Origin: Candidatus Aenigmatarchaeota archaeon
GTDB taxonomy: Archaea; Aenigmatarchaeota; Aenigmatarchaeia; QMZP01; QMZT01
Length of the DNA: 58,371 bases
Assembly (NCBI GenBank): GCA_043808015.1
Contig: JAZDFI010000030.1
Span: 1-58,371, forward strand
Direction of reading: 5' to 3'
Positions 10,001-57,365 of the stretch are shown piece by piece. The position numbers were made by a program, and so were the translations under genes. How positions within the stretch are numbered: the stretch's first letter is position 1; each line of letters opens with the position of its first letter. The notes under the pieces were generated by a model. That model searched no databases. It worked only from the letters and a program-made list of their open reading frames with translations, and was not told the DNA's origin.

Positions 10001-10112
10001 TGGGGTCGCTGAGATTCGAACTCAGGTCGCAGGCTCCCGAAGCCTGAATGCTAGACCACTGCAGAGCCCTTTTCACGTTTTTCTGGAAAGGGCTTAGCTA
10101 CACCACGACCCC
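10001..10112 (-). tRNA. tRNA-Pro(CGG) with a 37-nt D-loop intron (10059-10095, position 17/17a)
   Basis: Acceptor GGGGTCG/CGACCCC, anticodon arm CAGGC-TTCGGGA-GCCTG, T arm CTGAG-TTCGAAT-CTCAG. Splice motif: GTAG/CTGC helix with CT|A and AG|T bulges, giving a 75-nt mature tRNA. Confidence 0.93.
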
Positions 10113-22919: not shown

Positions 22920-24203
22920 ATGGTGCGCAACGACCTCTTCATGGCGACGCTCGACAACGACGCGGGCTTCGACTTGGGCGACTTCGCCAGGAAGAGCGGC
23001 AAGAAAGCTTATTTTACGTGGCACATGGAAGAGGGCGGAGGCAGCATAAACTCTTCACCCGTGATAAAGGATGAACATATATACATAGCCGCGCTCGACG
23101 GATATCTTTACAAAATCAAGAAATCCAGCGCAGAACTTGCATGGAAGTTCAAGGCGGGCGGCATGTTCAGCGACGCTTACCCTGTCATAAAGGACGGCAT
23201 AATCTATCTCGGCTGCTACAACCACAACGTGTATGCCATCGACGAAATGACGGGCAAAGAACTCTGGCGCTTCAGGACCGGCGGCAGGATAGAAGGCTCT
23301 GCAGTCCTCCCGCTCGATGACATGGTTATTTTCACATCCGGTGATTATTATGTTTACGCCATCCACCAGAAAACAGGAAAAATGTGCTGGGCTTTCAGGA
23401 CAGGCGGCTGGTCGTATTGCTGCCCCACTGAACACGAAGGGAAAATAATAGTCAGCTCTTCCGACGGAAACCTTTATCTTCTCGGCAAGGATGGCAGGGA
23501 GATATGGAGGTTCAAGACCGGTGGCAACATATTCACACAGAACAGGTTCTGCATACATGATGGGGTTGTATATTTCGGCTCGGACGATTTCAACGTGTAC
23601 GGCGTGCGGCTTTCTGATGGCATGGAAGTCTGGAGATACAGAACCGGCAGTTACGTGAATGTAGTGCCTACGATACACGAAGGCATGATTTACATATCAT
23701 CCGACGACGAGAATCTTTACGCAGTCGACCTGGCCACAACAAGAACAATCTGGAAATTCAGGATGGGCGAGCGCGCGGCCGGCAGCATGCCGGTTATACT
23801 TGGAAATAACGTGATATTCGGCTCCGCCGACCACAACGTGTATTGTCTTGACGCAAAGACCGGCAAAGAAGTCTGGCGCTTCAAAACTTACGGCCACATT
23901 TTCGGCGAGACGCTCATCGACGGCAACAGGATATACGTGCCTTCATACGACTGCCATCTTTACTGCATAACTACCGATGGCGAGCTGGTGTGGAAGTTCC
24001 GCACTTCCACCAGCAGGCAGAGCACATACAAATACGAAGAGGAGACCGTCATCGAATTCAACGCGCCCAAATTCGATGAAACGAAAGGCGAAAAAGACGA
24101 CAGGTATGCGGTCAGCGCTGAAAACGTCGTAAGCCACGACTACGCCTTCAAGAGCGAGTACAGTTTCAAAAGTGAATACCAGTCGAAAAGCGAGTATCGA
24201 TAA
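22920..24203 (+). CDS. PQQ-binding-like beta-propeller repeat protein (BamB-like), no signal peptide
   Basis: About eight repeats of ...S.D..LYA.D..TGKE.W.F.TG; C-terminal KSEY repeats. Confidence 0.85.
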   Translation: MVRNDLFMATLDNDAGFDLGDFARKSGKKAYFTWHMEEGGGSINSSPVIKDEHIYIAALDGYLYKIKKSSAELAWKFKAGGMFSDAYPVIKDGIIYLGCYNHNVYAIDEMTGKELWRFRTGGRIEGSAVLPLDDMVIFTSGDYYVYAIHQKTGKMCWAFRTGGWSYCCPTEHEGKIIVSSSDGNLYLLGKDGREIWRFKTGGNIFTQNRFCIHDGVVYFGSDDFNVYGVRLSDGMEVWRYRTGSYVNVVPTIHEGMIYISSDDENLYAVDLATTRTIWKFRMGERAAGSMPVILGNNVIFGSADHNVYCLDAKTGKEVWRFKTYGHIFGETLIDGNRIYVPSYDCHLYCITTDGELVWKFRTSTSRQSTYKYEEETVIEFNAPKFDETKGEKDDRYAVSAENVVSHDYAFKSEYSFKSEYQSKSEYR

Positions 24204-24206
24204 CGT

Positions 24207-25412
24207 CTATTTGCTGAAAAGAATTTCTATCACGTCGCCGTCATTCACTGCGTGTTCCGCGCCGAGCTTGCGTTTCGTCGCGAAGTCGATGCCTCCGATG
24301 AACTTGTCCGCCATTTCGCTATGGACTTTCGCTGCAAAATCCCTGAGTTTCGTCCCTTTTGGCACGAGCAGCGCGTCGGGAAGGACGGTCCCCTTTTTAT
24401 CCGTCATTTTATTAACATTCGCTACCGGATAGACGACGATGTGGTCGAGCAGCTCGAATACCGCTTTGTCCACGCATTCCTGCACGCCGGTCGAGCCGAA
24501 CTTTTCCAGTATGTTGTGCTTCACGAATTCCAGCGCTTTCTTCTGCCTGTCACTGAGTTTGTCCGGCTCGAGAATTTCAAAGCTATTGCAGCCCGGAAGG
24601 TATTTTATCAGGCTGTGCTTATCGGCTTCGCGTAAGGCGAGCTCGCTTTCAGCAGAACAAGGTATTATGGTATAATCAGGGAATTCGCTTTTCAGGCGCT
24701 CTATGTTTTTGTCCGCGCCGGGCATATCGATTTTGTTGGCCGCGATTATCATGCGCTTCGAAAGGCGCCTCAGCTCGAAGGCGAATTTGCGGAGGTCTTC
24801 GTCGCTCCATCTGGTAGGAGAAGTTTCATATAGAGTGAATTTTTCAAGCACCTTCAGTATCTGGTCCTCGGTTATCTTCAGGCCGGAAAACTGCTGGAAA
24901 AGCGATTCGAGTATGTTCTTCTTGTTCATCTCCACGTCTTTCGAGAATTTAGACCAGTTCTTTTTCAGCATGCCGTAAAACCAGTAGCCAATTTCCTCCT
25001 CGAGAAAACGCACGTCATTCGCCGGGTCATAGCTGCCGCAGGCGACGGATTCGCCGTTCTCGTTTGTCGAGCCTGACGCATCTATAACATGAATGAATGC
25101 GTCCGCCTGTCTCAGGTCATCGAGAAATTTCAGGCCAAGGCCTTTGCCGGTGTGCGCGCCCGGGACGAGGCCCGCGACGTCGAGCAGCTCGACAGGCACG
25201 AAGCGCATGTTCTGTTTGCAGTAGCCGACCTTCGGTTTGCACGGCGTCCCGACCTTGACGGCCGGGCATTTGACCTTGACGTAGCCCATGGCGTGATTTG
25301 GTTCGATCGTCGTGAAAACGCGGTTCGATATTTCCACGTCCACGAGCGTGAGCGCTTTGAGCATGCAACTTTTTCCTACATTCGTTTTTCCTACCAAAGC
25401 AATTAGGACCAT
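24207..25412 (-). CDS. ychF: YchF/Obg-family P-loop NTPase
   Basis: GKTNVGKS, FTTIEPN, DVAGLVPGAH.G.GLG, AANKID, C-terminal TGS-like domain. Confidence 0.93.
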   Translation of the reverse strand: MVLIALVGKTNVGKSCMLKALTLVDVEISNRVFTTIEPNHAMGYVKVKCPAVKVGTPCKPKVGYCKQNMRFVPVELLDVAGLVPGAHTGKGLGLKFLDDLRQADAFIHVIDASGSTNENGESVACGSYDPANDVRFLEEEIGYWFYGMLKKNWSKFSKDVEMNKKNILESLFQQFSGLKITEDQILKVLEKFTLYETSPTRWSDEDLRKFAFELRRLSKRMIIAANKIDMPGADKNIERLKSEFPDYTIIPCSAESELALREADKHSLIKYLPGCNSFEILEPDKLSDRQKKALEFVKHNILEKFGSTGVQECVDKAVFELLDHIVVYPVANVNKMTDKKGTVLPDALLVPKGTKLRDFAAKVHSEMADKFIGGIDFATKRKLGAEHAVNDGDVIEILFSK

Positions 25413-34398: not shown

Positions 34399-34510
34399 GC
34401 CTCGGTGGCTCAGTGGTAATTTCGAAGGAAGCAGGTTTTACCTGCTTCAGTCGCTAAAGAGCGTTCGCTTGGTAAGCGAAAGGTCGCGAGTTCAATTCTC
34501 GCCCGGGGCT
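34399..34510 (+). tRNA. tRNA-Thr(GGT) with a 40-nt D-loop intron (34418-34457, position 20/21)
   Basis: Acceptor GCCTCGG/CCGGGGC, anticodon arm TTCGC-TTGGTAA-GCGAA. Strict BHB: GCTC/GAGC outer helix, AGTG/CGCT central helix, GT|A and AA|A bulges, restoring GCTCAGTGGTAGAGC. Confidence 0.93.
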
Positions 34511-40520: not shown

Positions 40521-40541
40521 AATTACTATATCTATCTAAAA

Positions 40542-40549
40542 TATTTAAA
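40542..40549 (-). promoter_or_regulatory. TATA box for a leaderless LAGLIDADG transcript
   Basis: TTTAAATA with 21 nt between it and the ATG at 40520. Confidence 0.5.
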
Positions 40550-40591
40550 TATTTCTCCACCCCGCTGTGCTATAATGTATGAAGAATAATG

Positions 40592-40608
40592 TTTATAAAT
40601 AACTTTTA
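40592..40608 (-). promoter_or_regulatory. BRE/TATA positioned for the orphan 12-nt tRNA 5' fragment (probable original tRNA-iMet promoter)
   Basis: AAAAGTTA-TTTATAAA on the minus strand, 25 nt upstream of AGCGGGG at 40566. Confidence 0.5.
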
Positions 40609-40625
40609 CGAGCGCGGCTGAAGGT

Positions 40626-41165
40626 TTACTTTTTCCTGGCGGGCTTTTCCTTATCCTCTTTTTTGCATTCCGCAGCCTTGTGTTTGTGACCAGCGAAGCG
40701 GTCATAGAAAATGCCCAGTATGTATCCATACGCCACGAAGAATGCCGCGCTGATGGGTGCGAGCAGGATGAAGCGCGTCTGCACCATGAACAGGCCGCCT
40801 ATGAAGCCGGGGTATGCAAGCTCGCCCAGTATTATGCCGACAAGCAGCAGCAGGCAGAGGAAAATTCCCTTCCTCTTCGAACTACTGCCCATAAGGCTTT
40901 CGTACATGAGGGCGAATATGAATGTCATTATTATACCCGCTATGATGCCGCCGACTATCGAGCCCGGTATGGCGGCCATCATGCCTATGTCGGCAAGCTG
41001 GTCCATGGTCATGGGTATGTTTGTGCTGGATGGTATCGATGCCCGGATAATCGCCTTTATCTCTTCCCTGTAGAAAACGTACGAGAGAACGCTGGTTATG
41101 CCCTGCATCACACCATAGATGATGCCTGAAACCAGACCGGTCTTAAGCACCCTGGAAAAGTCCAT
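40626..41165 (-). CDS. hypothetical four-TM membrane protein
   Basis: Hydrophobic Gly-rich helices and a basic tail. Confidence 0.7.
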   Translation of the reverse strand: MDFSRVLKTGLVSGIIYGVMQGITSVLSYVFYREEIKAIIRASIPSSTNIPMTMDQLADIGMMAAIPGSIVGGIIAGIIMTFIFALMYESLMGSSSKRKGIFLCLLLLVGIILGELAYPGFIGGLFMVQTRFILLAPISAAFFVAYGYILGIFYDRFAGHKHKAAECKKEDKEKPARKK

Positions 41166-52702: not shown

Positions 52703-52861
52703 GCGGGGGTAGCCAAGCGGTTAAAGGCGATAGAACGGTCTTGAACTCTGATTCAAGATGATGTCGACGCTCAAGACCTATTCACTTAGAGTGCCTTTCG
52801 CGGACAGGAACCGCGAAGAACGCGAGGAGTGTGTTCCAGGGTTCGAATCCCTGCCCCCGCA
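52703..52861 (+). tRNA. tRNA-Leu(CAA) with two introns: 30/31 (52734-52768) and variable arm (about 52790-52829)
   Basis: Acceptor GCGGGGG/CCCCCGC; T arm CAGGG-TTCGAAT-CCCTG. CGAT/GTCG helix with AG|A and AC|G bulges restores ATAGG-CTCAAGA-CCTAT. The second excision restores variable arm TCACTTAGTGTGTTC; about 84 nt mature. Confidence 0.88.
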
Positions 52862-52862
52862 T

Positions 52863-52995
52863 TAAAGCTTTTTAGAAAAAAGCTTTAGCAAAAAACGGGA
52901 CTTAGAAAAAGGCTTTAGCGAAAAACGGCGAACTGTTTTACGAAAGTCGGTTTTCCGCGGGCGCTTTTTTCAAAAGAGCCCCTTTTCACGTTTTT
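52863..52995. repeat. cluster of palindromic REP-like repeats downstream of tRNA-Leu
   Basis: 11-bp stem TAAAGCTTTTT-AGA-AAAAAGCTTTA; 27-nt direct repeat at 52872 and 52902 (2 mismatches); degenerate inverted copy at about 52951-52980. Confidence 0.7.
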
Positions 52996-57215: not shown

Positions 57216-57365
57216 CGCCGGGACTGGGATTCGAACCCAGGACCCCGTAAGGAGACTAGCTGTCTGGGAAAATCTCAAAACGCAAACACGGAGTTTCGTT
57301 TTTTCGATAAAGCCTTTTTTCAAAAGGCTTTCCAGGCTAGCGCGTTACCGTTCCGCCATCCCGGC
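57216..57365 (-). tRNA. tRNA-Ser(GGA) with a 68-nt canonical 37/38 intron (57262-57329)
   Basis: GCCGGGA/TCCCGGC acceptor, G73, long variable arm; CTGG/CCAG helix with AA|A and AC|A bulges; 82 nt mature. Confidence 0.93.

Follow-up and report, generated by a model that had tools for sequence, protein, structure and literature searches.

REP/REPIN and BIME sequences are short bacterial palindromes that are moved by RAYT, occur in tens of copies, form tandem and inverted clusters and lie mostly in non-coding DNA. Rickettsia palindromic elements measure ~100-150 bp and insert into genes, including RNA genes, where they stay in the product. The closest described case to the one reported here is archaeal: the transposed bulge-helix-bulge (BHB) intron families of Thermoproteales (Fujishima et al. 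2010, as related in the accessible sections of PMC4090602 and 10.64898/2026.10.13.758758). For Asgard archaea, a preprint of 2026 put several possible routes of intron arrival to the test and, in its accessible sections, left arrival open (10.64898/2026.10.13.758758). ARMAN-2 (Ca. Micrarchaeum acidiphilum) is described in the accessible sections of two papers as having non-canonical tRNA introns and the splicing endonuclease EndA in an epsilon2 form (PMC3488258, PMC3239211). Here we describe a hairpin module of ~32 nt (the unit) that lies in a tRNA-Ser(GGA) gene of Candidatus Aenigmatarchaeota archaeon. The window analysed is an entire contig of 58,371 nt (C30), and the genome it belongs to (G000, called this genome below; related genomes carry other G numbers) comprises 934 kb in 39 contigs at a completeness of 90.7%. 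No published description of the module turned up in the literature searched, supplements not being opened. We think it probable, on balance, that the unit is a non-autonomous mobile hairpin module that is tolerated in RNA genes, where it would supply the intron-side helix of the splice motif and be removed by a broad-specificity EndA of the epsilon2 type.

The tRNA-Ser(GGA) gene occupies 57216-57365 on the minus strand. The Rfam tRNA model (RF00005, 48 bits) fits it end to end with a sole insert, of 70 nt, after the anticodon, and ARAGORN, with introns allowed, names the gene tRNA-Ser(GGA) and gives its intron 68 nt (Ser(gga) i(38,68)). From both programs and the predicted fold, with boundaries counted from the sequence, we placed a single 68-nt intron at position 37/38 (57262-57329). 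The 36-nt 5' exon (57330-57365), set by a 7-nt anticodon loop and by BHB geometry, ends in the loop bases CUGGAA, the last two being A36 and A37; the 46-nt 3' exon (57216-57261), read from the sequence and the Rfam alignment, begins with A38. Splicing would remove everything from 57329 to 57262. The ortholog in G003 is 99% identical.

The unit in this gene spans 57297-57331 and reads, on the minus strand from 57331 to 57297, AAAGCCTTTT-GAA-AAAAGGCTTT-ATCGAAAAAACG. It consists of a hairpin (57309-57331; 10-bp arms, 3-nt loop) and a tail (57297-57308), and it covers intron nucleotides 1-33 together with the last two exon bases, A36 and A37. The preliminary description of this sequence had placed a sense-strand hairpin and tail at the 5' splice bulge, and this is what we see. 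The copy matches a profile built from nine copies, itself included, at E = 7e-8 (nhmmer), and a palindrome scan detects the hairpin as well. Pair probabilities in the predicted fold are 0.85-1.0 for most stem pairs and 0.65 for the pair that closes the loop.

The preliminary description had also aligned this copy with 52905-52927, elsewhere in the window. The 22-mer made up of the 3' arm and tail does have a second site at 52907-52928, with 3 mismatches, where shuffles lead us to expect 0.00, but what lies there is only half a unit in tandem (3' arm and tail; 52902-52929, plus strand; nhmmer E = 7.8e-6, profile positions 11-38 only). The full unit is at 52863-52899 (plus strand, E = 2.8e-8), in the trailer of a multi-intron tRNA gene at 52703-52861 (plus strand; RF00005, 37.9 bits in a whole-genome search) that we read by eye as Leu(CAA); it begins 1 nt past the tRNA 3' end. 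A second recurrence that had been reported, that of the 13-mer CTTTTTTCAAAAG, is exact (57314-57326 and 52964-52976; 0.01 expected from shuffles), but it joins two different hairpins: the 13-mer at 52964 sits in a separate 9-bp hairpin (52959-52981) that is without the arms and tail of the repeat family, matches the profile at E = 2.9 only and is not counted as a member. For the 22-mer and the 13-mer alike, none of 100 shuffles gave two or more sites, so both similarities held against shuffled controls. As a separate observation, the first of the two inserts of the tRNA at 52703-52861 contains the words CTGA and GATGATG, which resemble the D and C boxes of a C/D-box small RNA.

Nor is the repeat limited to the few sites first noted. 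Across this genome, the nine-copy profile gave 18 nhmmer matches at 16 loci, a weak match on C16 that overlaps an open reading frame (ORF) being omitted. Six of the loci are tRNA introns: the Ser(GGA) intron, two further introns at 37/38 (C8:33699-33732 and C9:9261-9289), one in a D-loop (C12) and two in T-loops (C18, C29). Five more are tRNA trailers, on C30, C28, C14, C6 and at C8:61489, where seven matches begin 0-2 nt past the tRNA 3' end. The other five include three copies whose opening TAA is the stop codon of the upstream ORF (C35, C15, C38), one of which fills exactly the 37-nt spacer between two convergent ORFs (C38), and one copy antisense to its neighbouring genes (C28:12424). The share of tRNA-linked loci, 11 of 16, is far above what a generously defined tRNA share of non-ORF DNA would give (binomial P = 9e-8), and 15 of the 16 run in the same sense as the gene that they adjoin (P = 5e-4). 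A scan for the build alone (at least 5 bases, TTTT, loop, AAAA, complement) found 16 hairpins in this genome and 0-3 in each of five shuffles; 14 of the 16 also carry the tail of the family.

Copies in this genome therefore lie in different tRNAs and at 37/38, D-loop and T-loop positions, the pattern by which transposed introns are recognised. In two tRNAs the hairpin is essentially the whole intron. The first is the T-loop intron of tRNA-Arg(CCU) on C29, 33 nt long, which has orthologs only in this genome and G003. The second is the 38-nt D-loop intron (10059-10096) of tRNA-Pro(CGG) (10001-10112, minus strand), which falls in a gap of the Rfam alignment. It is a variant hairpin of the same build, with arms TAAGCCCTTT / AAAGGGCT and GAAAAACG in the loop, and is presumably the Pro intron that the preliminary description had grouped with the Ser intron; the G003 ortholog has a longer intron.

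The unit is widespread among relatives. Its 18-nt core, with at most one mismatch, occurs in 26 of 41 related genomes, against 2 matches for a reversed control pattern. With G or C allowed at one tail position, the core is found in 84 of the 301 genomes of a phylum sample, in which matches to the control pattern are scattered, at 1-3 per genome, over a minority of genomes. The number of copies per genome ranges from 0 to more than 20, and genomes with several copies belong mostly to the same order and to a few other families of the class. We classified by hand the contexts of 75 profile matches in 60 stretches from 23 genomes; the stretches had been picked for the core 18-mer, so the counts describe contexts and not densities.

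Introns of tRNA or rRNA genes hold 51 of these 75 copies. Among them, 42 are sense copies in tRNA introns, and 41 of these abut the end of a 5' exon segment, in the D-loop, anticodon loop or T-loop. Four are sense copies in rRNA introns (a 23S site shared by G007 and G040, and 16S twice; Rfam confirms three of the four), one is antisense in 23S, and four are antisense copies that close long T-loop introns at the 3' end, where the hairpin again touches the exon (two were checked against the tRNA). Outside introns, five copies are in tRNA trailers, in five the TAA of the hairpin is the stop codon of an upstream ORF, and 14 are otherwise intergenic, one of them antisense and 1 base upstream of a tRNA 5' end. 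One rule covers the orientations: the hairpin end points toward the boundary of the mature RNA and the tail away from it. A single tRNA-Leu gene of G009 has four copies within its inserts, of which one lies at the exon boundary in the D-loop and another at that in the T-loop. The "intergenic palindromic repeat" of the preliminary description is thus real, widespread, structurally constrained and variable among close relatives, but it is not primarily intergenic, with 51 of 75 copies in the relatives and 6 of 16 loci in this genome being intronic.

Two side observations concern these relatives. The rRNA inserts that open with a unit are 50-70 nt long (23S: L047 in G007, and L070 and L069 in G040; 16S: L071 in G040 and L077 in G018), and one insert in 23S is antisense. 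At L061 (G028:C4:2351-3092), units and inverted units alternate and part of the sequence is masked as N; this may be a hot spot or an assembly problem.

The module is built as follows. A 10-bp hairpin with arms that are mostly TAAGCCTTTT / AAAAGGCTTA encloses a loop of 1-7 nt and is followed by a conserved single-stranded tail, AGCGAAAA or near variants. We counted covariation of the arms on 27 copies of 32 nt, copies of other lengths or with loop inserts being excluded; a MAFFT alignment of 69 copies was set aside, since it pushed length differences to the 5' end and put the arms out of register. In the 27 copies, 98.4% of cells are paired and four of the ten pairs have changed on both sides. 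Five measures were used, and in 500 shuffles not one of them was equalled; registers slid along the arms are 19-78% paired. The orthologous Ser introns that have the hairpin give examples of paired changes: AAGCC/GGCTT, AACCC/GGGTT, AACCT/AGGTT and AAGCT/AGCTT. The four T and four A beside the loop, and most of the tail, are invariant in the same 27 copies. Departures on a single side, counted there by eye, comprise four G-U and one C-A on the sense strand, too few to separate a constraint on RNA from one on DNA.

Some copies extend to ~70 nt, with a second, GC-rich hairpin (GGAG...CTCC) added to the unit; examples are C14:40452-40521 (minus strand) and C6:2817-2887 (plus strand) in this genome and L039 in G003. 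In relatives, the GGAG...CTCC hairpin lies after the tail in T-loop and D-loop introns or within the loop of the first hairpin, so that there must be two or more hairpin modules, able to nest within each other. At the Rfam gathering thresholds, a scan of the window matched four tRNAs only, and a scan of 12 stretches from relatives matched rRNA and tRNA only. We also considered whether the unit could be a C/D-box or H/ACA RNA; inspection by eye showed neither C or D boxes nor an ACA box.

A comparison of the Ser(GGA) orthologs at 37/38 in 20 genomes bears on how the unit came to its place. There is no intron at this position in six of them, whose exons are the same (G005, G006, G010, G019, G023, G036); the intron-less genes belong to two other families of the order and to three genera of this family. 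One ortholog has a minimal intron of 11 nt (G015). Two have a 34-nt core intron without the hairpin, made of AA, a small CCAGCAGC...GC hairpin and the 3' splice segment (G021, G012). Nine have the unit ahead of this same core (G000, G003, G002, G001, G014, G018, G009, G013, G008), and in G001 an extra 57-nt palindrome is nested in the tail. G004 has the 3' arm only, then a different hairpin, and G029 has an unrelated intron of 55 nt. Because the same core occurs without the hairpin in two genomes and with it in nine, the unit is a discrete indel, ~32 nt long, that an intron already in place carries at its 5' edge. It had been proposed that the repeat either seeds tRNA introns or hides in them. 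For Ser(GGA) the second alternative describes what we find, and the first does not, given that the core exists without the unit. The absent, short and repeat-containing introns that had been expected to order the events do all exist, but they leave that order unfixed, since the comparison has no rooted tree.

Whole units, half units and nested hairpins are all found as blocks gained or lost among congeneric genomes. At the trailer of tRNA-Pro(TGG), this genome has ~105 nt of units, G002 has one unit (with flanks that are 100% identical in the alignment shown) and G004 has none. The trailer unit at C8:61489 is absent from G003, and in G004 it contains a nested hairpin. An identical nested hairpin occupies the identical place within the unit of the G004 Ser intron, which points to copying between the two loci. 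At 37/38, the G003 tRNA-Ala(GGC) gene is interrupted by an intron of 72 nt, which consists of the unit, a second hairpin and, at the 3' side, a segment pairing with the anticodon loop, and its counterpart in this genome has none there and an intron in the variable region instead, with flanks 96-97% identical. Three tandem units follow tRNA-Pro(CGG) in G003, against zero in this genome, and a 5' untranslated region (UTR) has a unit of 34-37 nt in G002 against an empty site in this genome. In 23S, a 68-nt insert that opens with the unit is present in G007 and, at the same site, in G040; here the gene is uninterrupted (C8:63109/63110). Overall, seven of the ten core-pattern sites of G003 are occupied at the orthologous place in this genome and three are not.

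Contigs from metagenomes agree to a limited degree. The tRNA-Gly(GCC) gene is intron-less in the window, and one metagenome contig runs on at 37/38 with the unit; a contig from run X3 has 26 other letters in place of 57263-57329, the shorter side of the joint being 30 nt. The sides of such joints are short (21-30 nt) and the contigs may stem from other relatives, so they lend weak support only.

The account that we prefer would explain these patterns as follows. The module would be a non-autonomous mobile DNA element whose blocks are gained and lost between congeneric genomes, with mobility as the probable cause of the indels. Its main habitat would be the exon-facing ends of BHB introns in tRNA and rRNA genes, with fewer copies after tRNA 3' ends or stop codons, and it would be tolerated in essential RNA genes through removal by splicing or a position outside the mature RNA. 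Beginning one base past the 5' cleavage site, the hairpin would serve as the intron-side helix of the splice motif (h') and probably help to define the 5' splice site. With h' provided, only a 4-nt complement of the exon (helix H) and a bulge would be needed further downstream, and an epsilon2 EndA would cut relaxed motifs of this kind at non-canonical positions. In tRNA-Ser(GGA), an older intron would have received the unit at its 5' edge, and a shortening by 2 nt would, in G000 and G003, have moved the hairpin onto the last two exon bases.

The sole EndA ORF of this genome, on C9, encodes 395 amino acids (aa; PF01974 at 96 bits) and aligns along its entire length with PDB chain 4fz2_A (E = 2e-105). 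The code 4fz2 appears in the paper on the structure of the ARMAN-2 epsilon2 EndA, an enzyme that, according to the accessible part of that paper, cleaves strict and relaxed BHB motifs (PMC3488258). Judged by this homology, the EndA of this genome is of the epsilon2 type. The introns themselves suggest that the hairpin acts as helix h' in tRNA-Arg(CCU), in the D-loop introns and in tRNA-Pro(CGG). In the Arg(CCU) intron, the tail CGAA can pair with UUCG of the T-loop, leaving AA as the 3' bulge. In the D-loop introns, a second copy of the 3' arm lies right before helix H and would make a strict BHB. In the Pro(CGG) intron, the 3' arm is followed directly by 4 nt able to pair with the exon and then by AG at the splice site, again a BHB; all three motifs were found by eye. 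Seeding of the intron by the unit is possible in the two cases, Arg(CCU) and Pro(CGG), in which the hairpin makes up nearly everything.

The Ser precursor fits this role less well, and several points weigh against the account as a whole. The minimum-energy fold of the precursor in this genome does contain a 4-bp helix H, in which exon CUGG (positions 32-35; 57332-57335) pairs with intron CCAG (57264-57267) at p 0.97-0.99, followed by an unpaired 3' bulge (AC at 57263 and 57262, then A at 57261). On the 5' side, however, A36, A37 and the first intron base pair with three U at the base of the hairpin; opening this bulge would take 3.5 kcal/mol. The 3' arm of the hairpin is set apart from helix H, where a strict BHB would have the two contiguous, and the motif predicted in this genome is at best a relaxed BHB. 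Among the orthologs, the folds of G002, G001, G014, G013 and G008 leave A36 and A37 free, with the first intron base as the start of the hairpin; helix H is complete in all of these except G001, which has three of the four pairs. The fold of G018 is without helix H, and in G009 two of four helix-H pairs match the expected partners. With the bulge paired in this genome and helix H missing or partial in G018 and G009, the h' role is not uniformly supported. It also follows that the sequestering of the 5' bulge by the hairpin, which had been stated for this gene, is seen in minimum-energy folds of G000 and G003 but not in those of the five other orthologs. The invariant TTTT/AAAA and tail suggest a sequence-specific recognition that goes beyond what the h' role explains, and the copies in trailers and at stop codons have no splice partner, being accounted for only as tolerated sites.

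Mobility raises its own difficulties. The indels could be deletions, or exchanges of alleles by recombination, instead of insertions. At four filled/empty pairs there is no consistent target-site duplication, and only the Pro(TGG) trailer is compatible with duplication of TA. Searches for Y1 transposase (PF01797), reverse transcriptase and TnpB gave no matches in this 90.7%-complete genome (PF01797 did match in control genomes; DDE transposases and integrases were not searched for), and none of the 16 loci flanks an ORF-bearing element. Finally, a sample of relatives chosen by the core 18-mer cannot say how dense the unit is in introns relative to elsewhere.

A related account, which we regard as possible but tentative, gives the unit a larger part in making introns. 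The module would be a portable half of a splice motif, the intron-side half, spread as a mobile element at the DNA level and creating new BHB introns, and its tail would be a fossil of an origin in the T-loop. In the T-loop form, the hairpin would be h', the CGAA tail would form helix H with the universal UUCG of the T-loop and AA would be the 3' bulge, as the Arg(CCU) intron illustrates. Insertion at T-loop position 59/60 would yield a spliceable intron at once, and elsewhere a 4-nt complement would be needed nearby. The CGAAAA tail of copies in D-loops, anticodon loops, trailers and at stop codons would then be a relic. The idea fits the CGAA subfamily and one minimal T-loop intron; for the CCAA-tailed subfamily of other families, no matching founder site was verified.

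The unit could instead be a functional RNA element kept by selection, either as the binding site of a protein that acts in processing or as a chaperone, or as an insulating hairpin that keeps intron and flank sequence from mispairing with the tRNA body, and needed as such at exon boundaries, leaders and trailers. We consider this unlikely, although it fits the covariation and the orientation: the arms covary while the T-run, A-run and tail do not change, the unit is kept at the orthologous Ser site in four genera (g1, g6, g10, g5), and nearly all loci in this genome are sense. The hairpin end also always faces the mature-RNA boundary, even in the four antisense copies at intron ends and the antisense copy upstream of a tRNA. 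Against it, the unit is dispensable at every site compared, the same tRNA being without it in close relatives, and of the tRNA genes seen in this genome, at least 37, only 11 carry it. Further copies lie in a 5' UTR, past stop codons and, as antisense, in 23S, and the tandem half units and nested hairpins resemble the dynamics of a repeat and not a fixed signal.

It is very improbable that the unit is a transcription terminator, or a module for the 3' ends of tRNA and protein genes, carried into introns secondarily. A T4-T5 run is present in the 5' arm. The positions of a minority of copies would suit such a role: five tRNA 3' ends in this genome are followed by one within 0-2 nt, the TAA is shared with a stop codon on C35, C15 and C38 and in five copies of relatives, and the spacer on C38 is filled by one unit. 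Sixteen such hairpins for ~970 ORFs, however, do not make a general terminator, and termination would do harm at two thirds of the sampled copies, which are located within tRNA or rRNA genes and have essential exons downstream. The T-run lies within the ascending arm and an A-rich tail, not a U-run, follows the hairpin. The pattern of the arms is unlike that of bacterial-type terminators, and archaeal termination requires oligo-T only. Two other roles for copies next to genes were set aside. The 3' arm and tail do not look like a promoter, for ordinary TATA-like boxes, rich in A and T, can be seen by eye elsewhere at the neighbouring genes and tRNAs, and cleavage of trailers by EndA at the hairpin is at odds with a spacing past the discriminator that varies from 1 to 3 nt.

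Mobility at the RNA level, in which excised introns that begin with the hairpin would be reinserted by EndA and ligase and then copied into DNA, is hardly credible. It would explain why the 5' end of the unit is the 5' cleavage site in 41 of 42 sense copies in tRNA introns, and why related introns occur at various positions and in more than one tRNA. It sits badly with the lack of a reverse transcriptase match in this genome, with copies that lie in a 5' UTR, in trailers or past stop codons (places in which splice motifs were not looked for), and with units gained inside existing introns, as tandem half units and in both orientations. Chance likeness of A/T-rich, low-complexity sequence has next to no probability: the motif is full of A and T runs, and the 13-mer match at 52964 falls in such runs, but 100 shuffles reproduced neither match, profile matches reach E = 7e-10 and reversed-pattern controls are near zero.

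The inserts also affect annotation: because of them, ARAGORN and Rfam overlooked several tRNA genes of this genome or modelled them wrongly. In the window, both call tRNA-Thr(GGU) at 67 nt (34444-34510, plus strand) with a truncated D-arm; a normal acceptor and the start of a D-stem lie upstream, at 34399 (GCCTCGGTGGCTCAGTGG), followed by a D-loop intron of ~38 nt, so that the gene would span 34399-34510 and the truncated D-arm is an artefact of annotation. A tRNA-Thr(CGU) gene is likewise called at 67 nt (C28:46202-46268). The Thr(GGU) genes of G004, G018, G009, G010 and G008 have a repeat unit at 37/38 instead. Both programs failed to detect three tRNA genes that have introns in the D-loop, the T-loop or both, at C14:~40530-40700 (minus strand), C18:~24060-24260 (minus strand) and C8:~61330-61487 (plus strand); these were recognised only by the repeat in or after them. 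At C15:3445-3554 (plus strand), ARAGORN reports Leu(TAA) with an intron; by eye this is tRNA-Ala(GGC), with a G3-U70 pair and a ~38-nt intron in the variable region (45/46) that could form a strict BHB.

The module occurs in three settings, as a whole intron, as an addition to an intron and as a free copy outside RNA genes, and so offers a handle on the gain of archaeal tRNA introns. Filled and empty alleles within one genus, with flanks up to 100% identical, provide pairs with which to ask whether insertion of the hairpin suffices for cleavage by EndA, and they may also help in the search for the enzyme that moves the module.

How, then, does the module compare with the systems already described? 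Like REP/REPIN and BIME sequences, it is a short palindromic unit in tens of copies per genome, clustered in tandem and inverted order and mostly outside coding sequence, whose hairpin symmetry is maintained; it differs in being archaeal, in having its main habitat inside RNA genes, as sequence that would be spliced out, in its strong sense bias and in that no gene of the Y1/RAYT type was found in this genome. With the Rickettsia palindromic elements it shares the habit of small palindromes that sit inside genes and survive where the product tolerates them, but here the unit would be spliced out or lie outside the mature RNA. The resemblance to ARMAN-2, as far as the accessible sections of the papers on that organism describe it, includes membership of DPANN, introns in the D-, anticodon and T-loops, and a three-unit EndA, the one found here matching the ARMAN-2 structure chain over its full length; those sections report no repeat family common to introns and flanks. 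For the transposed intron families of Thermoproteales, too, the accounts accessible to us infer gain of introns at the DNA level and require a BHB. There, however, whole introns are shared, in Crenarchaeota with an alpha2beta2 enzyme. Here, in a member of DPANN with an EndA of the epsilon2 type, the shared part is a module of ~32 nt that can be added to an existing intron. The introns of rRNA hold it too and, perhaps unlike the Thermoproteales families, it has copies outside introns, namely in tRNA trailers, in a 5' UTR and past stop codons.

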